From the NCBI GenBank assembly GCA_045616485.1, contig JAZLGU010000044.1, positions 897-64,896 on the forward strand: a stretch of DNA of 64,000 nucleotides. The letters are read 5' to 3'. Origin of the DNA: Lachnospiraceae bacterium (GTDB lineage: Bacteria > Bacillota > Clostridia > Lachnospirales > Lachnospiraceae). The position numbers and the translations under genes were made by a program. Numbering within the stretch: position 1 is the stretch's first letter; each line of letters starts with the position of its first letter. The notes beneath the pieces were generated by a model, which was not told where the DNA came from, searched no databases, and worked only from the letters and a program-made list of their open reading frames with translations. This document shows, piece after piece, positions 1 through 7,513 of the stretch.

Positions 1-964
1 TATCATTAATTGCAGTAAACTTATAGTAAAGATTCTCCACAGGTGTCTCTGTAGTATAAGCTCCTTTTGCTTTGCTAAAGTCTACCTTCTTCCAAAAGTC
101 ATTGATAAAGCAATCTGCCATCTTTACCTGGCCATCATAATTGGGGTGAAAGTCTACAAATTTACCATCTGCACCATACTGCAGATACTGAGAATTAAAT
201 AAGCTGTCAAGATTTACATAGTAAACATTACTATCGCTTGAAGCTAATGCTTTATAATACTGTTGAATCTCATTTATTGCGGTTTTTACAGATCTGGTAA
301 AAAGGTAAGAGGTTATTATATCCATATTGACTATACTTGATAAAGTGGAAACACCATAATTATCATTATAACCTACATTAGTAAGAGCGATTTTACAATT
401 TGGATTATAACTCTCAATAACAGAAATAGTTTGTTTTACTTTTTCATTTATTGAAGCAATATATTTTATATGAAGCTCATTTTTAGAGTTCCCTAAAGCA
501 TCGGTAACTGCTTTATATACAGGGCTACTAGTTGTGATTCTGTTCTTACTTCCAATCAAATCAGGAGTGTCATAGCCTGCTCTGTATAAAGCTTCACCCA
601 GCATATGAATTATATCATTACCACCAATGCAAATTGTTATAAAATCAGCCTTTTTGATATCATCGATAACTTTTGCATCGTTAATAATCTGATAAAAAAC
701 ATCATCCGTAGTATAGCCACCTTTAGCATCATTACGAATAATGATTTCAACATTCTTGGATTTTTCCAGCTTTTCCTTTACATATACAGGATAAGTAGTC
801 CAATCTTTACCATCATATGTTGCATAGTCTGTCAAACTATCCCCCAGCGCCAGATAAGCGACCTTAGTTCTTCCGGCTGCATCAGCATATCTTAACGGTA
901 AAAGAGTAATGCAACATGCAAGCATAACAACAAGTGCCAGTGCTTTTTTTGTAAATCTTTTCAT
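1..964 (-). CDS. secreted SGNH/GDSL-family hydrolase (3' end runs off the window)
   Basis: Absent from the ORF track because it is open at the window edge. Hand translation from the ATG (complement of 962-964), preceded by GGAGGG, gives MKRFTKKALALVVMLACCITLL (signal peptide). Then come LALGDSLTD (block I GDS), CIGGNDI (block III GxND) and DFHPN (block V DxxH). Confidence 0.8.
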   Translation of the reverse strand, partial: MKRFTKKALALVVMLACCITLLPLRYADAAGRTKVAYLALGDSLTDYATYDGKDWTTYPVYVKEKLEKSKNVEIIIRNDAKGGYTTDDVFYQIINDAKVIDDIKKADFITICIGGNDIIHMLGEALYRAGYDTPDLIGSKNRITTSSPVYKAVTDALGNSKNELHIKYIASINEKVKQTISVIESYNPNCKIALTNVGYNDNYGVSTLSSIVNMDIITSYLFTRSVKTAINEIQQYYKALASSDSNVYYVNLDSLFNSQYLQYGADGKFVDFHPNYDGQVKMADCFINDFWKKVDFSKAKGAYTTETPVENLYYKFTAIND

Positions 965-1014
965 TATATCGCCCTCCAAAAGTTAGTATATATAGTATAT
1001 ACTTTTTGTCCCCA

Positions 1015-1087
1015 AGGTGGTGTAAACTTAGTATAAATATACACTTAATTAATTATATTTATTGTGTCTTCTGTTTTTACACCACCT
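1015..1087. repeat. 12-bp inverted repeat AGGTGGTGTAAA / TTTACACCACCT separated by 49 nt of AT-rich DNA
   Basis: Read directly: arms at 1015-1026 and 1076-1087. It lies 50-120 nt upstream of the minus-strand GDSL gene start, so it may be an operator or 5'-UTR stem. Confidence 0.55.
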
Positions 1088-1239
1088 CTTAATAATATAT
1101 AGTGAAGTAAGCAATGTAAATAGGCAATGTGGTTCAAATGTTTATATATTTGCAAAAGAAGACTCGACATAAACGAACTATACTCCAGATGATAGTGTAA
1201 AATACTAATTTTATCCTCAGGATATTTCCCTTATTAGGG

Positions 1240-1269
1240 TTGACTTAGATTTATTCTTTTTTGTATAAT
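1240..1269 (+). promoter_or_regulatory. candidate sigma-A promoter (TTGACT - 18 nt - TATAAT) upstream of the DUF2971/MTase/AsnB-like operon
   Basis: -35 TTGACT at 1240-1245 and -10 TATAAT at 1264-1269. This would give a 5' UTR of roughly 270 nt before the ATG at 1546. Confidence 0.35.
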
Positions 1270-1545
1270 GACAAATAATGACAGACAATATGAATGCTTG
1301 CATCTGCCCGTGTGCCCTCACTGTCAAATTGCTAATGATGTTAATGATTTCAACGCCAGCTTGAAAAGACACTTGAAGATAGCCCCAAGTTTTATAACGA
1401 AGATTTAGTGAATTTCGTAAAAAAGCCATTTTAATTGGGATGATGTCACATCAAAAACATTAGATTTATACAAAAAGTAATAGTTATTCTTCCATGGATA
1501 TATAATAGTAATTTTTAAATATATAAAGCATAAGGTAAACATCCA

Positions 1546-2382
1546 ATGTCGACTATTAATTATCAAAAGTTTCCAAGTCTTCAGACCTTTGAGGATCTGG
1601 ATGACTATTATGAAAACAAATATGCACACCATACTGAATACAATCATTATGCAGGCAAGAATGCTATCAAATCTATTGTCAAAAATAATGAATTCTGGAT
1701 TTCTTCTGTAAAAGGATTTAATGATTGTGAAGATACCGCGCAGTTTACAGATAATCTAAATGCTTATTATTCATTATGCTTTAGCACAGGAACGGAAGAA
1801 AATCTGGCTTTATGGTTTATTTATTCCAATAAAGATGGCGGCCGCATCAGATTCAACAAATTTAATCAAATATCTAAAATTATTGATAATTCTACTTTTA
1901 CACTTGCAATTAAAAATGCAAATAATACTACCACAAATCTTATGACACTCCAAAAAGGAAAAGATTTTGATTTGATTATTGGAGATATTATTTATAAAGG
2001 GCAAGAGAAGAAAGGTAAAGTAGCATTAAGATATAATACATTTATAAACTATCATATAGCCTGTAAAGAAATTAAAAAATTCAAAGAAGAGCATGTTGGA
2101 TTTATTAAAGATAATATATGGTACTACGAAAAAGAAACTCGTGTCCTTATAAAATTAAAGGATAATGTACTAAAATCCATCACTTTTAATGAAAACAAAG
2201 AATACATAATAAAAATGAATTTTTCCAATGTTAAGCTATATAAACTTAATGTTGATTTATCACCTGGAATTACAGAAAATGAATTCTACGATTTATCAAA
2301 AGAATTGATCAGTTCAAAATATCAGGTGGCTATTAAACCAAGCTGTTTTTTCGGTAAAATTAGAAAATGGCCCAATAACTAG
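1546..2382 (+). CDS. hypothetical protein, DUF2971-like
   Basis: 278-aa ORF. The N-terminal HYAGKNAIKSIVKNNEFWISSVKGFNDCEDTAQF resembles the DUF2971 signature (YHYT...l..il....l..s....lNDp.E), recalled from memory. It is the first gene of a tightly spaced three-gene unit. Confidence 0.5.
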   Translation: MSTINYQKFPSLQTFEDLDDYYENKYAHHTEYNHYAGKNAIKSIVKNNEFWISSVKGFNDCEDTAQFTDNLNAYYSLCFSTGTEENLALWFIYSNKDGGRIRFNKFNQISKIIDNSTFTLAIKNANNTTTNLMTLQKGKDFDLIIGDIIYKGQEKKGKVALRYNTFINYHIACKEIKKFKEEHVGFIKDNIWYYEKETRVLIKLKDNVLKSITFNENKEYIIKMNFSNVKLYKLNVDLSPGITENEFYDLSKELISSKYQVAIKPSCFFGKIRKWPNN

Positions 2383-2402
2383 TTCTCCCCAGGGTACCCA
2401 TC

Positions 2403-3167
2403 ATGCTTACTAATCTTAAAACAAAAATAAAACAACAGGAAAAACATAACATAATTGCAAAAATAGTTATGAAGATATACAGACTATTTAAGAAGATTCT
2501 TCGATTTATTACCAGCAGAAAGTACAGATCTCTGGTGAAGATGAAGTTCTTTCATTCCAAAAGGGCTCAGCAGACCACCTGTTATACTGCTATGGATCGT
2601 TATCCCAATGAATTTGCTGCTGCAAAGGAATACTTTGATTCTATCAATAAAACGGATATTAGAATCCTTTCCTATGGCTGTTGCACCGGCGAAGAAGTAG
2701 TGACACTTAGGCAGTATTTTCCGGAGGCTACCATTGTAGGGGCTGAGATTAATGCTGACAGCTTGCGTATATGTAAAAAGCGAAAGCTGGATAATAAGAT
2801 TGTTTTTATCAAGTCCATTCCTAAAAAGATAGCAAAGTATGGTCCATACGATATGGTGCTGGCCATGGCAGTACTGGAACGTACACCACAGTATGTGCAA
2901 AATAACGGCATCACAGACCTTTCTAATATTTATCCTTATGAAAAGTATGACAAGCAGGTAATAGAGCTGGATTCATATCTTAAAAAGGATGGCTTGTTTT
3001 TATGTAGCTATACCCATTATTTCTTACCAGACTCTACTGTGGGGAAGAAATATAATGTATATGGCAACTGTGGCTTTAAGGGTCAGATTTTTGACACTCA
3101 TAGTAAGCTAAAAAGTAGTGATAAAGCATTTCCGGATATGTTTATAAAAAGTAAATTACAGGGGTAG
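2403..3167 (+). CDS. class I SAM-dependent methyltransferase, CheR-like motif set
   Basis: RILSYGCCTGEEVVTL matches CheR motif I (IWSaGCsTGEEpYS). IVGAEINADSL and YDMVLAMAVLE fit the post-I and motif II/III positions. It starts 20 nt after the preceding gene and ends 6 nt before the next. The exact start is uncertain because the RBS is weak. Confidence 0.7.
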   Translation: MLTNLKTKIKQQEKHNIIAKIVMKIYRLFKKILRFITSRKYRSLVKMKFFHSKRAQQTTCYTAMDRYPNEFAAAKEYFDSINKTDIRILSYGCCTGEEVVTLRQYFPEATIVGAEINADSLRICKKRKLDNKIVFIKSIPKKIAKYGPYDMVLAMAVLERTPQYVQNNGITDLSNIYPYEKYDKQVIELDSYLKKDGLFLCSYTHYFLPDSTVGKKYNVYGNCGFKGQIFDTHSKLKSSDKAFPDMFIKSKLQG

Positions 3168-3173
3168 TTTCTC

Positions 3174-5105
3174 ATGTCAGCGATATATGGAGCTGTAGAT
3201 CTAAAAAACACTAGTGACTTTTCAGTCCAGGCAGAAAAGTATAAAAAGGAATATTCAGCGTATGCAGTAGAGCATGTAGATAATATAATTTCCGGCTCTG
3301 CCTTTATGGGCTGTGCCCATCAGTATTTTACTCCTGAAGCAGAACGTGATGTGTTGCCTGTAGAAGAGCCCGAGCTGCTTTTCACAGCCGACTGTTTCCT
3401 GGACAATCATATAGAGCTTAAAGAGGCGATGCAGCTCCCCTCTGATACTCCGGACGGGGCAGTGATACTGGCAGCGTTTAAGAAGTGGAAAAAGGATGTT
3501 ATAAAGCATCTTCATGGCTCCTTTTCCTTTGCTATCTATGATAAAGAGGCCCGTGAAGTCATGCTGGCCAATGACCGTTTTGCCCAGCGTTGTTTATTCT
3601 ATACCGTAAGGGGCAGTCAGGTTCATTTTTCTACACTCTTTTATCCATTACTTCGTAATAGTGGTCTGGACTTTAAAAAGAATAATCGCTGGCTTTTGGA
3701 CAGTATTTCCATGCGTGGACCTGTTATGATGTCTGAATGCAGGGAGACTGCCGTAGACTCCGTATATAAGGTAGTAAGCGGCACTTTCGTTACCATTAGT
3801 CTCGGCAGCGACGACAATGCCATTATAGAAGAGCATGAGTATTACAGGCCAAAAGATGAGATCAAGGTAAATAGAAAAATCACTCCTAAAAAGAGTGAGG
3901 ATATGATAAAAGATGTGATGTACCATGCCGTGGGCAGGATACTTAGAAATAAAGATCATATAGGTGCTCAGCTTAGCCGCGGACTGGACAGTACTTCAGT
4001 CGCCTGTACAGCTGCCATTCTTATGGCAAGAGAAGGAAAGTCTATAAACAGCTATACATCTGTCCCTTTAAAGGAGGCCAATCTGGATAATAAGGGGTAT
4101 CTCGTATACGACGAGACCAGTGGCGTCATGAAAGTAGTAGAAGCTTACCCCAATATCAAGCCTCATTTTATCGATACTGCCGGTAGAAATTACCTGCAGG
4201 AAGCAGATAATATCATTCGTCTTTGGGAGCTGCCTTGCAAGTCCCAGCAAAATTCCATCTGGTCCGACGAGATATATAAGCAGGCTGCAGCAGATGGAGT
4301 AAAGATAATGCTGACCGGAGCTACGGGCAATTGCACCATATCCGCCGGTAGCATCGAAAATTCACTCTATGATCATTTAAAGCATCTGCGCTTTATAAAA
4401 GCTTACAAAAGCCTTGGAGTAGCAAAAAAAGTAGGGGTACCGCCTAAGCGTTATTTAAGAAATCTTTGGAATCTCTACAAGAATTATAGAAAATGGGTAA
4501 AAGAGAATCATAGCTTCTACGAAGAAAATTTCACCAGAAGCGATATAGGAGAAGCATACAAGCTCTCTACCCGTATGGTGGAAAATAATGGTCATTATCT
4601 GCCCTTTGAAGATCTTAAGGCCATGCGTAAAGTCATGTTTTTCCAGAAGGCTAATGCCCAGATAGGCGAAGTAGATACCAAGACCAGTCTTACATATGGT
4701 GTACTGCCCAGAGACCCCATGCGTACCCACGATATGATGCAGCTCTGCTATTCCCTGCCTATAGAATGTTTCTCCTGGGATGATTATGACAGACGTCTGG
4801 TAAGAGAGGGTATGGCAGGTATTGTACCTGAATTTATACGTCACGACGTGCGCCATCGTGGCCGTCAGAGTGGTGATATCTACTATAGACTGAGTCTGGT
4901 ATGGGATGATGTATTACCTGTCATAAAAAATCAGCTATATAGTCCATCTACTTTAGACTATCTGGATAAAAAGAAAATAGCAGAGTGGCTGGATACTCTG
5001 ACCCGGGACAATCTCGAAGAGAATAGCAATAAAACCCTGATGGTAGTAGATGCTTATTCATTTTCACTTTATGTAAATCAGCTTGATAAACTCATATCAA
5101 AATAG
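3174..5105 (+). CDS. asparagine synthetase (AsnB)-family enzyme lacking the glutaminase Cys; lasso-peptide macrolactam synthetase-like
   Basis: 643 aa. It starts MSAIYG instead of MCGI (Cys2 nucleophile replaced by Ser). FTADCFLDNHIELKEAM sits at the position of NGEIYN..EL. LSRGLDSTSVACTAA matches the SGGLDSS PP-loop. The RBS AGGGG is upstream. Confidence 0.75.
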   Translation: MSAIYGAVDLKNTSDFSVQAEKYKKEYSAYAVEHVDNIISGSAFMGCAHQYFTPEAERDVLPVEEPELLFTADCFLDNHIELKEAMQLPSDTPDGAVILAAFKKWKKDVIKHLHGSFSFAIYDKEAREVMLANDRFAQRCLFYTVRGSQVHFSTLFYPLLRNSGLDFKKNNRWLLDSISMRGPVMMSECRETAVDSVYKVVSGTFVTISLGSDDNAIIEEHEYYRPKDEIKVNRKITPKKSEDMIKDVMYHAVGRILRNKDHIGAQLSRGLDSTSVACTAAILMAREGKSINSYTSVPLKEANLDNKGYLVYDETSGVMKVVEAYPNIKPHFIDTAGRNYLQEADNIIRLWELPCKSQQNSIWSDEIYKQAAADGVKIMLTGATGNCTISAGSIENSLYDHLKHLRFIKAYKSLGVAKKVGVPPKRYLRNLWNLYKNYRKWVKENHSFYEENFTRSDIGEAYKLSTRMVENNGHYLPFEDLKAMRKVMFFQKANAQIGEVDTKTSLTYGVLPRDPMRTHDMMQLCYSLPIECFSWDDYDRRLVREGMAGIVPEFIRHDVRHRGRQSGDIYYRLSLVWDDVLPVIKNQLYSPSTLDYLDKKKIAEWLDTLTRDNLEENSNKTLMVVDAYSFSLYVNQLDKLISK

Positions 5106-5212: not shown

Positions 5213-5350
5213 ATGAAGAATTGGAATACACCCGCAGTAGAAGAAGTAAAGGTTAGCAATACACAGTACGGTGGTGCTACTGTTACAGAGCCTGATGACG
5301 TTTTTGTAAACGCTGATGGTAAGTGGGAAGCTACTTTCGTAGCATCATAA
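5213..5350 (+). CDS. RiPP precursor-like peptide alpha1 (45 aa): MKNWNTPAVEEVKVSNTQYGGATVTEPDDVFVNADGKWEATFVAS
   Basis: The ATG lies 7 nt after AGGAGGA (5199-5205) and the stop TAA is at 5348-5350. Its paralog alpha2 differs mostly by synonymous changes. The leader-like N-terminus is shared with three neighbouring short ORFs. Confidence 0.8.
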   Translation: MKNWNTPAVEEVKVSNTQYGGATVTEPDDVFVNADGKWEATFVAS

Positions 5351-5369
5351 TTTGAGGGAGGACATAAAG

Positions 5370-5504
5370 ATGAAGAATTGGAATATGCCTGCAGTAGAAG
5401 TAGTTGAGATCTCAGCTACACAGAATGGTGGTATGCCTAGCAAGAATTTCGACCAGTCATGGTACGATGAGAATGGCGCTCTTCACGTAAATTTCGAGAG
5501 CTAA
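5370..5504 (+). CDS. RiPP precursor-like peptide beta1 (44 aa): MKNWNMPAVEVVEISATQNGGMPSKNFDQSWYDENGALHVNFES
   Basis: The ATG is preceded by GAGGGAGGA (5354-5362), 19 nt after the alpha1 stop. The stop TAA is at 5502-5504. It aligns without gaps to alpha1. Confidence 0.8.
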   Translation: MKNWNMPAVEVVEISATQNGGMPSKNFDQSWYDENGALHVNFES

Positions 5505-5527
5505 TTATTTAAACATATTGTAACAGA

Positions 5528-5581
5528 GGGGGACGTTTCCAGCTGACAAGATTTAAATGTTGTCAGTTGGAAACGTCCCCC
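5528..5581 (+). terminator. 22-bp stem hairpin (one G-U pair, 10-nt loop) between the two alpha/beta cassettes; terminator, attenuator or RNA-stability element
   Basis: GGGGGACGTTTCCAGCTGACAA (5528-5549) pairs with TTGTCAGTTGGAAACGTCCCCC (5560-5581). There is no clean U-tract. Outer arms CATATTGTAACA (5514-5525) and TGTTACAAATATG (5596-5608) extend the structure. Confidence 0.6.
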
Positions 5582-5617
5582 TGTCATATATTAATTGTTA
5601 CAAATATGAAATATTTC

Positions 5618-5646
5618 TTGATATAAAAATAACATAGTGATATTAT
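5618..5646 (+). promoter_or_regulatory. candidate promoter for alpha2/beta2 (TTGATA - 17 nt - TATTAT with TGA extended -10)
   Basis: -35 at 5618-5623 and -10 at 5641-5646, with TG at 5638-5639. Confidence 0.45.
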
Positions 5647-5688
5647 CTAAAATATCTTATAAGAAGTAATTTTTGGGAGGAAAAAATT

Positions 5689-5829
5689 ATGAAGAACAAT
5701 TGGAATACACCAGCTGTAGAGGAAGTAAAGGTTAGCAATACTCAGTACGGCGGCGCTACTGTTACAGAGCCTGATGACATTTTTGTAAATGCTGATGGTA
5801 AGTGGGAAGCTACATTCGTAGAGTCATAA
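5689..5829 (+). CDS. RiPP precursor-like peptide alpha2 (46 aa): MKNNWNTPAVEEVKVSNTQYGGATVTEPDDIFVNADGKWEATFVES
   Basis: The ATG is preceded by GGGAGG (5675-5680) and the stop TAA is at 5827-5829. Relative to alpha1 there are 8 synonymous codon changes, 2 replacements (V->I, A->E) and one extra Asn codon. Confidence 0.8.
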   Translation: MKNNWNTPAVEEVKVSNTQYGGATVTEPDDIFVNADGKWEATFVES

Positions 5830-5848
5830 TTATAGGGAGGACATAAAA

Positions 5849-5998
5849 ATGAAGACTTGGACAGATCCAGATGTAAAGGTACTTGATATCGAAGAGACAG
5901 CAAATGGCGGTATGCCTAGCAAAAATTTCGACCAGCAGTGGTACGATGAGAATGGCGCTCTTCACGTAAATTTCGTTGATCCTAACGCTAATAGCTGA
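5849..5998 (+). CDS. RiPP precursor-like peptide beta2 (49 aa): MKTWTDPDVKVLDIEETANGGMPSKNFDQQWYDENGALHVNFVDPNANS
   Basis: The ATG is preceded by AGGGAGGA, 19 nt after the alpha2 stop, and the stop TGA is at 5996-5998. The core is nearly identical to beta1, including a 37-nt identical stretch, while the leader has diverged. Confidence 0.8.
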   Translation: MKTWTDPDVKVLDIEETANGGMPSKNFDQQWYDENGALHVNFVDPNANS

Positions 5999-6016
5999 TT
6001 CTATCAGGTTATTACT

Positions 6017-6046
6017 CCGCACATGTAAATGTGCGGTCTTTTTTTG
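6017..6046 (+). terminator. Rho-independent terminator closing the peptide locus
   Basis: CCGCACAT (6017-6024), loop GTAA, ATGTGCGG (6029-6036), followed by TCTTTTTTT. Confidence 0.8.
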
Positions 6047-6218
6047 TTCATTTCTTATATCACATAATATCATTATATTTATAAGTAATTTTCAAGTGAT
6101 TATTCATTATTATTTTTATAATTTGCTTGCTTTTTCTTCTATAATAGGATATCATATCGTCTTGTACAAATGTATACAATTATACCATGATTATGAAATA
6201 CAGGAATATTTCATAGTA

Positions 6219-6304
6219 GGAGATAAAGAGTTCTCCATTTATTCCACTTCGTTTCATAAAAGGAGATAAAGAGTTTCCCATTTATTCCACTTCGTTTCAT
6301 AAAA
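6219..6304 (+). repeat. 43-bp tandem direct repeat (2 full copies plus a partial third that supplies the aminotransferase RBS)
   Basis: GGAGATAAAGAGTTCTCCATTTATTCCACTTCGTTTCATAAAA (6219-6261) is repeated at 6262-6304, with TTCTCC changed to TTTCCC. GGAGATAACATG then follows at 6305. Confidence 0.85.
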
Positions 6305-6313
6305 GGAGATAAC

Positions 6314-7513
6314 ATGTCACTTGAACTTTCTAAAAAAGCACTAGCAGTAAAGCCTTCATCTACCCTGGCTATCACAGCCAAGGCTAAGAAAATGAAAGCT
6401 GAGGGTATCGATGTAGTAGGATTTGGTGCAGGTGAGCCGGATTTTAATACACCTCAGAATATTTGTGATGCAGCCAAAAAAGCTATTGACGATGGCTTTA
6501 CCAAGTATACACCTGCTTCAGGTACAGTAGAGCTGCGACAGGCTATTGCCCAGAAGTTTAAAAGATTTAATAATCTTTCCTACGATATAAGTCAGATAGT
6601 AGTATCTAACGGTGGTAAGCATTCTCTTACCAATGTTTTTGAGGCTATTATTAATCCCGGTGATGAGGTCATCATCCCTGCACCTTTCTGGCTCAGCTAT
6701 CCTGAGATAGTAAAGCTTTGTGGCGGTGTACCTGTTATCGTTGACTGTCCTGCCAGCCAGAGCTATAAAATGACAGCTGCTCAGCTGCAGGCTGCTATTA
6801 CAGAGAGGACAAAGGCAGTTGTACTCAATACTCCTTCCAATCCCACAGGTATGATATATACCAAGGATGAGCTACTTGAGCTGGCTCAGGTCATTGTAAA
6901 GAATGATATCTACTGTGTATCCGACGAGATGTACGAGAATCTCGTATATACAGATGATGAGGTCGTATCTATAGCTTCCCTGGGTCAGGATATCTATGAC
7001 CGTACCATTACCTGCTCCGGCGTATCAAAGGCCTATGCCATGACCGGCTGGAGAATAGGCTATGTAGGCGCTCCTCGTGAGATTGCTGCTCTTATGGGCT
7101 CCATCCAGTCTCATCAGACTTCCAATCCCGGCTCTATCGCTCAGGCTGCTTCTTTAGAGGCTCTTTGCGGCCCTCAGGACACTATTGAGGATATGAGAAA
7201 AGAATTTGACAGAAGAAGAGTATATATGTATGACAGACTGTCCTCCATGCCTCTTATTTCCTGTCTGAAGCCTCAGGGTGCTTTCTATGTATTTGTAGAT
7301 ATGACCAATGTTTTTGGCAAAAAGTATCAGGAGCAGACTATTGAAAATATCGGCGATGTAGCTCGTATCCTTATCGACGATTACAAGACAGCAGTTATTC
7401 CTTGTGCTGATTTTGGTGCCCCCAATCATATGCGTCTTTCCTATGCCATCTCCATGGAAAACATCGAGAAGGGTCTGGATAGAATAGAAGGCTTCCTCAA
7501 TACTATCTGCTAA
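6314..7513 (+). CDS. pyridoxal-phosphate-dependent aspartate aminotransferase (class I)
   Basis: 399 aa. It has the SKAYAMTGWRIGY PLP-lysine motif, NPSNPTG-like TPSNPTG, and typical AspAT length. Confidence 0.85.
   Translation: MSLELSKKALAVKPSSTLAITAKAKKMKAEGIDVVGFGAGEPDFNTPQNICDAAKKAIDDGFTKYTPASGTVELRQAIAQKFKRFNNLSYDISQIVVSNGGKHSLTNVFEAIINPGDEVIIPAPFWLSYPEIVKLCGGVPVIVDCPASQSYKMTAAQLQAAITERTKAVVLNTPSNPTGMIYTKDELLELAQVIVKNDIYCVSDEMYENLVYTDDEVVSIASLGQDIYDRTITCSGVSKAYAMTGWRIGYVGAPREIAALMGSIQSHQTSNPGSIAQAASLEALCGPQDTIEDMRKEFDRRRVYMYDRLSSMPLISCLKPQGAFYVFVDMTNVFGKKYQEQTIENIGDVARILIDDYKTAVIPCADFGAPNHMRLSYAISMENIEKGLDRIEGFLNTIC

Follow-up and report, generated by a model that had tools for sequence, protein, structure and literature searches.

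We analyzed a 64,000-nt stretch of DNA from a Lachnospiraceae bacterium (assembly GCA_045616485.1, contig JAZLGU010000044.1, forward-strand positions 897 to 64,896; referred to below as the window), in which four small open reading frames (ORFs) at positions 5213-5998 encode two peptide subtypes, referred to as alpha and beta. These ORFs are assigned as lasso peptide precursors of a Lachnospiraceae branch of the paeninodin-like family, an assignment that is well supported because of homology and the synteny of their relatives; judged by its sequences, what defines the branch is a leader of WxxP type together with Ser at the C-terminus. The leader is probably cut off after residue 19, which would make Gly20 residue 1 and Asp28 residue 9 of a nine-residue ring (Gly1-Asp9) and would place the leader Thr at -3 and the leader Trp at -16. 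This Gly1/Asp9/Thr(-3) reading has already been proposed in silico (PMC7533575; as Gx7D in PMC13289728), and the peptides with their Asp register are further members of a known, in silico-predicted group that has no characterized product.

All four ORFs lie on the + strand and share the motif W4-x-x-P7-x-V9-x-x-(V/L)12-x-(V/I)14-x-x-T17-x-(Y/N)19-G20-G21, as had been described in the original prediction for this DNA, which was made from the letters alone and centered on 5261-5350 (the alpha1 Thr17 codon through the alpha1 stop codon). Beyond the motif, each of the four has D28, [D/N]35-G36, F42, and a C-terminal Ser, the position that serves as substrate for a paeninodin-type kinase. The same prediction held D28 to be the sole conserved acidic residue, and the sequences agree: D28 is the only one common to the four peptides, and Glu26 is found in the alpha peptides only. 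A Shine-Dalgarno sequence (AGGAGG or GGGAGG) stands 6-9 nt 5' of each ORF, and the two alpha/beta units form a tandem duplication with 83% nucleotide identity between units (Table 1).

Table 1. Features of the lasso locus and its immediate surroundings, in coordinates of the window.
Feature	Position	Strand	Size	Description
DUF2971 gene	1546-2382	+		Pfam DUF2971; insertion relative to the related contig L017; left boundary of the module
Class I S-adenosylmethionine (SAM) methyltransferase	2403-3167	+	254 aa	Pfam Methyltransf_31/23; stop 6 nt before the cyclase start
Lasso cyclase (C protein)	3174-5105	+	643 aa	Asn-synthetase-like; best NCBIfam match NF033535
alpha1 precursor	5213-5350	+	45 aa	MKNWNTPAVEEVKVSNTQYGGATVTEPDDVFVNADGKWEATFVAS; NF033524 E 0.016, 14.9 bits
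alpha1, parts				Proposed leader, residues 1-19 (W4, P7, V9, T17); proposed core, G20-S45; proposed ring acceptor, D28
beta1 precursor	5370-5504	+	44 aa	From the ATG at 5370; MKNWNMPAVEVVEISATQNGGMPSKNFDQSWYDENGALHVNFES; NF033524 E 0.0065, 16.2 bits
beta1, parts				Proposed core, G20-S44 with D28
Stem-loop, perfect	5527-5582	+	23 bp	3' of beta1, between the alpha/beta units; without T tract
Promoter-like site	5618-5646	+		TTGATA-17-TATTAT with TG; 5' of alpha2; consensus match only
alpha2 precursor	5689-5829	+	46 aa	Paralog of alpha1, 91% identical; leader with one additional Asn
beta2 precursor	5849-5998	+	49 aa	Core near-identical to beta1; tail 5 residues longer
Intrinsic-terminator-like hairpin with T tract	6017-6046	+		Closes the peptide array

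Among NCBIfam models, NF033524 (paeninodin family lasso peptide) is the sole match for each of the four peptides (E 0.0065-0.029), so the alignment to this model that the original prediction had proposed points to the expected family, but with 14.1-16.2 bits against a cut-off of 27 bits. A relative from Lachnospira pectinoschiza (P0138; P-numbers denote relative peptides and L-numbers related loci) passes the model with 30.1 bits and bears the NCBI name "paeninodin family lasso peptide."

To describe the wider family, we pooled a first set of 63 distinct relatives from a word-indexed profile search with the results of an exhaustive profile search, in which 1.84 billion representatives were compared and 228 clusters (representatives at 50% identity) matched at E <= 0.001; together, the two sets gave 201 distinct peptides. 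In the word-indexed search, the family profile retrieved 61 relatives; its best match, P0081, has the same sequence as beta1, and P0306 (991 aa), which the peptide profile also matched, was set aside as a low-complexity repeat protein irrelevant to the family. As W-x12-T was used as selection anchor, Thr is at W+13 in 201/201 by construction. Relative to this Thr, Asp is at T+11 in 200/201 and Gly at T+3 in 196/201 (the remaining five have S, S, N, N, and D), while T+2, i.e., position 19, has 15 residue types, including Glu, Lys, and Asp. Gly21 (T+4) is found in 123/201, and acidic residues elsewhere are not conserved (T+8 in 29, T+9 in 54, and T+10 in 3 of the 201). In the first set, W4, T17, and D28 are each present in 63/63 and G20 in 62/63, V, I, or L occupies position 9 in 62/63, and position 19 is N in 28, Y in 23, H in 5, Q in 4, E in 2, and F in 1. 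When the subtypes are considered separately, position 19 is Tyr in 23/26 alpha peptides (entropy 0.52 bits) and Asn in 30/36 beta peptides (0.95 bits), and position 18 has an entropy of 1.7-2.0 bits within subtypes. The C-terminal Ser is shared by 56/63 peptides of the first set and by 137/201 of the pooled peptides.

All precursors beside homologous cyclases in L001-L015 likewise have Asp at T+11, including those of L014 with Thr or Ala at T+3, and the same spacing is found in almost every Lachnospiraceae or C. beijerinckii entry of a published table (PMC7533575). On these sequences, the Thr-Asp offset is a fixed trait of a large Lachnospiraceae/Clostridia clade and not of the window locus. 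The atypical register that the original prediction had noticed is therefore real, but it is neither peculiar to the window peptides nor new, given its occurrence in 200/201 relatives and its earlier publication in silico.

The cyclase encoded 5' of the peptides has NF033535 (lasso isopeptide-forming cyclase) as its best model at E 7e-44 (150 bits, cut-off 525), and matches Pfam Asn_synthase and GATase_7, with the GATase-like N-domain present. Ser2 replaces the glutaminase Cys, the PP-loop S-x-G-L-D-S is intact, and every invariant column of a 24-homolog alignment is kept. A sequence search of the PDB with this cyclase returned no match. Its homologs (39-53% identity) occur only in Lachnospiraceae, among them Butyrivibrio and Pseudobutyrivibrio, and are found in full lasso clusters. 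Homologs next to lasso genes elsewhere were a point raised by the original prediction, and this is what the relatives have: orthologous cyclases with alpha/beta pairs lie in full paeninodin-type clusters of all three groups. In L007 (P. xylanivorans CP043028) and L009, the gene order is NTP_transf_5, ABC exporter, PqqD (B1; PF05402), Transglut_core3 (B2; PF13471), HprK-like kinase, cyclase, alpha, and beta. The B2 of L007 passes NF033537 (68 bits vs. 33), and its B1 reaches 77.5 bits on the Bacillota lasso PqqD model, whose cut-off is 80. In L002-L005, tblastn also identified genes for B2, kinase, ABC, or NTP-transferase, and HprK-like kinase together with NTP_transf_5 is present in L002-L005, L007, and L009.

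The peptide paralogs of the window are under purifying selection. Comparing the proportions of nonsynonymous (pN) and synonymous (pS) differences, alpha1 and alpha2 have a pN of 0.019 and a pS of 0.347 (pN/pS ~0.05), their leaders, identical except for one inserted Asn, have a pN of 0.00 vs. a pS of 0.48, and the cores of beta1 and beta2 have a pN of 0.035 and a pS of 0.25 (pN/pS 0.14). Low pN/pS, strong Shine-Dalgarno sequences, and a cyclase with all family-invariant residues argue that the precursor genes are functional. A separate observation concerns the beta2 leader (5849-5905), which has changed relative to the beta1 leader (5370-5426) in front of a near-identical core: 10/19 positions differ (pN 0.335, near the pS of 0.418), and the diverged leader still keeps W4, P7, V9, T17, N19, and G20. 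This pattern indicates that the non-anchor positions of the beta leader came under relaxed or diversifying selection after the duplication.

The position of the cut relative to Thr17 is best discussed against the leader of PbaA, in whose crystal structure with its RiPP (ribosomally synthesized, post-translationally modified peptide) recognition element (RRE) Trp stands at -15, Pro at -12, and Leu at -10 (PMC13381572). Since this Trp is at -15, the Thr(-2) of PbaA is at Trp+13, and Thr likewise follows Trp by 13 residues in the window peptides, in agreement with the Firmicute paeninodin-type leader recognized in the original prediction. Asp is located at Thr+10 in the precursors of B. cereus (T-M↓A-G-P-G-L-K-T-P-D) and Ruminococcus (T-M↓G-V-W-F-G-K-F-K-D; both in Table 3 of PMC7533575), but at Thr+11 in the window peptides, one residue beyond the canonical precursors. 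Each possible register hence departs from a rule, as had been stated: Thr17 is at -2 only with a ten-residue ring, and at -3 with Gly20 as residue 1.

With moderate confidence, we favor the cut after residue 19 and the Gly1-Asp9 ring, because Gly is near-invariant at T+3 while T+2 varies freely, because Gx7D corresponds to a canonical nine-residue ring (PMC13289728, PMC7533575), and because one cyclase per cluster serves Tyr19 and Asn19 peptides that share Gly20 and Asp28. In all four window peptides, G20-x7-D28 fits a small residue 1 and an Asp at 7-9 in the Gly-start register only. A number of points weigh against this reading. The four peptides and the cyclase all score under the NCBIfam cut-offs, a literature search returned no experimentally characterized member of the clade and no characterized Lachnospiraceae lasso peptide, and experimentally studied lasso leaders all have their determinant at -2, the sole validated variation being Ile(-2) (PMC10368454). 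The Trp-Thr spacing is that of PbaA, where Thr is at -2, position 19 is conserved within the subtypes as expected of a residue of the product, and T+3 is Gly in the Bacillus paeninodins as well (T-M↓A-G-P-G; PMC7533575), which would allow Gly20 to correspond by homology to residue 2 of the core. In addition, the B1 and B2 genes are missing from the window, as described below, so that maturation of its peptides has to be assumed.

Those observations on spacing, on position 19, and on Bacillus cores, which begin with x-Gly, would all fit cleavage between residues 18 and 19, with Thr at the canonical -2 position, cores starting from Tyr (alpha) or Asn (beta), and a ten-residue macrolactam to Asp28. 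The divergence between beta1 and beta2 also stops at residue 18, with identity back at Asn19, and metanodin (PMC12670498) provides one precedent for a core that starts with Asn, although that peptide comes from a proteobacterial cluster, has a canonical ring size, and is unrelated in sequence to the window peptides. Against this, known rings have 7-9 residues, our literature search found no lasso peptide with a 10-membered ring, and the ring in question would be larger than any characterized one, while a one-residue change in ring size strongly lowers production in engineered systems (PMC13352647). Its residue 1 would have 15 identities, Glu, Lys, and Asp included, followed by a residue 2 that is 97.5% Gly, and one cyclase per cluster must accept both Tyr1 and Asn1. 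We thus regard the ten-residue ring as rather unlikely, while noting its consequence: this clade of more than 200 distinct peptides would be the first in nature whose lasso rings exceed nine residues, and one cyclase per cluster would take two different bulky N-terminal residues. Far less probable still are separate acceptors, with alpha peptides closed on Glu26 (a ring size of 7 if counted from Gly20 and of 8 if counted from Tyr19, both canonical) and beta peptides on Asp28. Position 26 is Glu or Asp in 19/26 alpha-type peptides, but it is non-acidic in several others (Val in P0126, Gln in P0140) and in most beta-type peptides, Asp28 is invariant in the alpha type too, and a single cyclase would have to form rings of two sizes; the alpha-specific Glu26 ring was rejected on these conservation grounds. 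The original prediction had further allowed for a double-glycine (G20-G21) leader with anionic cores; a peptidase-containing ABC transporter would then cut after G20-G21 and release linear bacteriocin-like peptides. This reading is hardly credible and was dropped: although G20-G21 is ~20 residues from the N-terminus in all four window peptides, the clade does not conserve Gly21 and L003 has its GG at a shifted position, the exporter of L007 aligns to TIGR01193 (bacteriocin cleavage/export) from profile position 166 only and therefore lacks the C39 domain expected in the first 165 positions, no C39 transporter is encoded in the 64-kb window, and the orthologous complete clusters encode the lasso B2 peptidase and cyclase.

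A different kind of alternative is raised by the gene content of the locus itself. When the L007 and L009 proteins for B1, B2, kinase, ABC, and NTP-transferase served as tblastn queries, nothing was found in the window at E <= 10, and relaxed tblastn searches for decayed remnants of B1, B2, and kinase in the window gave noise only; the original prediction had not mentioned the absence of B1 and B2. The locus may then be an orphan remnant or serve other chemistry, its peptides staying unprocessed in a decaying module or, still bearing their leaders, being modified into non-lasso products by the cyclase and methyltransferase. The left flank, an unrelated GDSL-lipase/GH16 gene, and the repetition of the B-less layout in L001, L010 (1-22000), and probably L012, of which only 0.8 kb of 3' sequence is known, would be in keeping with such a state. 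We consider it improbable, as purifying selection acts on the peptides and also on the alpha leader, the full-length cyclase has all invariant residues kept, and triculamin, the sole proven B-less system, combines a precursor that has no leader with a cyclase truncated at its N-terminus (PMC12070363), neither of which applies to the window. Instead, since the RRE motif and the Thr of the leader are conserved (with an alpha leader pN of 0.00) and the cyclase is full length, we infer that B1 and B2 encoded at another site of the genome act in trans. In a neighbor-joining tree, cyclases of B-less loci and of complete clusters are interspersed, with no separate "orphan" clade, and a literature search for orphan lasso cyclases found none.

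Under the favored Gly1-Asp9 reading, the PqqD-type RRE (B1) would bind the leader stretch W4-x-x-P7-x-V9 as a beta-strand, and the transglutaminase-like B2 peptidase would cut the leader off with the invariant Thr17 as determinant, at a site one residue farther from Thr (-3) and Trp (-16) than in Bacillus/Paenibacillus paeninodins. The cyclase would adenylate the Asp28 side chain and couple it to the new N-terminal amine, giving a Gly1-Asp9 ring, presumably threaded, followed by a 16-21-residue loop and tail with Ser last. As the locus has no B1, B2, HprK-like kinase, or exporter, genes at another genomic site would have to provide for leader removal, and the cyclase-coupled methyltransferase may add a methyl group. 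For Gly-start cores, the computed monoisotopic lactam masses are 2664.2343 (alpha1), 2810.2031 (beta1), 2736.2554 (alpha2), and 3332.4581 Da (beta2); for Tyr/Asn-start cores, they are 2827.2976 (alpha1) and 2924.2460 Da (beta1). The leader Pro is itself variable in the clade: P7 is present in 36/63 close relatives, and it is replaced by Ala in 26/63, mostly of beta type (W-E-N-A-E-I), so that the RRE motif of the clade is better written as W-x-x-(P/A)-x-(I/V/L).

Paeninodin itself has an A1-D9 ring. The sequence of its B. cereus homolog is available in print (PMC7533575). With the paeninodin types (PadeA, PbaA of Paenibacillus alginolyticus, and the B. cereus homolog), the window peptides share the WxxPx(L/V/I) leader with its Trp-Thr spacing, the Asp ring acceptor, and the C-terminal Ser, and the orthologous loci share the split B1/B2, HprK-like kinase, NTP_transf_5, MsbA-like exporter, and Asn-synthetase-like cyclase. 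They differ in having Asp at Thr+11 instead of Thr+10, x-x-Gly instead of Met↓Ala-Gly after Thr, and longer cores (25-30 aa) of unrelated sequence that remain under the NF033524 cut-off, and the window locus differs in being without B1, B2, kinase, NTP-transferase, and exporter. Also close are the predicted LasA precursors of rumen Butyrivibrio, Lachnospira, and other Lachnospiraceae; for those of Butyrivibrio and Lachnospira, Sabino et al. (2020) predicted Gly1, Asp8/9, an invariant Thr "at position -3," and a conserved C-terminal Ser (PMC7533575). These belong to the same clade, with the same W4/T17/G20/D28 layout, C-terminal Ser, and predicted Gly1-Asp9/Thr(-3) register; the L004 peptide is their "Butyrivibrio sp. 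YAB3001 #2," and their Lachnospira multipara peptides are beta-like. A 2026 survey of the Hungate1000 collection used Gx7D as a criterion (PMC13289728). Both reports are in silico and concern complete clusters, and because Gly1 and Asp8/9 served as search criteria, they do not test the register. The methyltransferase, the alpha/beta pairing, the tandem duplication, and the B-less modules found here are not part of these reports.

The triculamin biosynthetic gene cluster (PMC12070363) also combines one or more precursors with a cyclase and a tailoring enzyme and has neither RRE nor leader peptidase. Its precursor is leaderless with a follower and its cyclase is without the N-terminal domain, in contrast to the conserved 19-residue leader and the full-length 643-aa cyclase of the window.

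To our knowledge, every lasso-mining tool uses the rules of Thr at -2 and a 7-9-residue ring. In either register, an abundant rumen/gut clade breaks one of them, and the answer bears on more than 200 peptides and on automated core prediction. Besides the register, the window locus raises the trans-servicing of cyclase and precursor modules, the role of the methyltransferase, and the joint action of alpha and beta.

Regarding the last of these, at least nine loci or contigs, independent of one another, have an adjacent alpha and beta pair after one cyclase, among them the window (5213-5998), L001 (6151-6479), L007 (12065-12379), L009 (12036-12363), and L002-L005. The pairs are P0092/P0102, P0084/P0086, P0091/P0085, P0108/P0101, P0100/P0107, P0110/P0105, P0111/P0135, P0120/P0089, and P0124/P0139, with the patterns ..TQYGG..FDD[IV][FY]VN.[DE]G.WE.TF.. 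(alpha) and ..T.NGGMPS..FDQ.W[FY]DENGALHVNF.. (beta). Such strict pairing suggests, by analogy with two-peptide bacteriocins, that the alpha and beta products may act jointly, a behavior for which we know of no description among lasso peptides. A metagenomic peptide, P0136 (86 aa), has an alpha-like leader and core and then a beta-like "YYDENGALHV" in the same ORF, and may be an alpha-beta fusion.

The methyltransferase gene next to the cyclase is a candidate for a tailoring enzyme. SAM methyltransferases are also part of the lasso loci of lihuanodin and cellulonodin-2 (PIMT) and of lassomycin-like peptides (C-terminal O-methyltransferase), but the window enzyme is of generic class I (Methyltransf_31/23): its match to PCMT (PF01135) has an E of 0.081 and 13 bits, under the cut-off of 20.3, and a Pfam scan gave no match to the O-methyltransferase family-2 model. 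A Foldseek search of the PDB with its AlphaFold2 model (predicted local distance difference test score 90) returned generic class I methyltransferase folds only (CysG, WbdD, BpumL, and METTL6; template modeling score <= 0.53), and a PDB sequence search gave one weak generic match only. Homologs of 46-47% identity are located inside other lasso clusters, namely L014/L015, where NTP_transf_5, B2, and the methyltransferase (L014 6001-6756) stand beside a cyclase, two precursors, PqqD, and ABC, and L016, with the order cyclase, precursor, sugar transferase, and methyltransferase (6001-6783). The closest homolog (L013, 64% identity) and a Paenibacillus homolog (L018) lie outside lasso clusters; with homologs both inside and outside, the association with lasso genes is recurrent, not exclusive. 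This methyltransferase family, neither PIMT-like nor lassomycin-type, recurs in three independent lasso loci and, from this distribution, may be an uncharacterized lasso tailoring enzyme. The precursor of L016 (3985-4221), which adjoins a 690-aa cyclase and the homologous methyltransferase, has a leader ending in W...T-A-D-G and a Cys-rich core (CECTQNG...CPDCGG) with no Asp or Glu from T+7 to T+13, and so departs from the ring rule of the clade.

The module of methyltransferase, cyclase, and two alpha/beta units is bounded on both sides by unrelated genes. To the left, window 1-1151 corresponds to a GDSL-lipase/GH16 gene, which is unrelated to the lasso system, and 3' of the peptides are housekeeping genes (aminotransferase, proC, scpA/B, and others). 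L017, a contig from a related metagenome-assembled genome, aligns to window 1-1151 and 2377-4425 with 81-90% nucleotide identity, and has the layout GDSL-lipase/GH16 (reverse strand), methyltransferase (L017 2147-2911), and cyclase. The segment in between, window 1152-2376, is AT-rich (27-31% GC), contains the DUF2971 ORF, and is missing from the otherwise collinear L017. It seems to have been inserted recently between the genes for the lipase and the methyltransferase, and the DUF2971 gene is probably not part of the lasso system. Cyclase and precursor modules with no B1, B2, kinase, or exporter close by (window 1-5105, L001, L010, L017, and probably L012) recur in differing genomic contexts among rumen Lachnospiraceae.

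Within the peptide array, promoter-like sites such as the one 5' of alpha2 are not more numerous than expected from shuffled sequence. The stem-loop between the two alpha/beta units has a predicted RNA folding energy of -49 kcal/mol (z -9.6), and possibly stabilizes or attenuates the precursor transcript.

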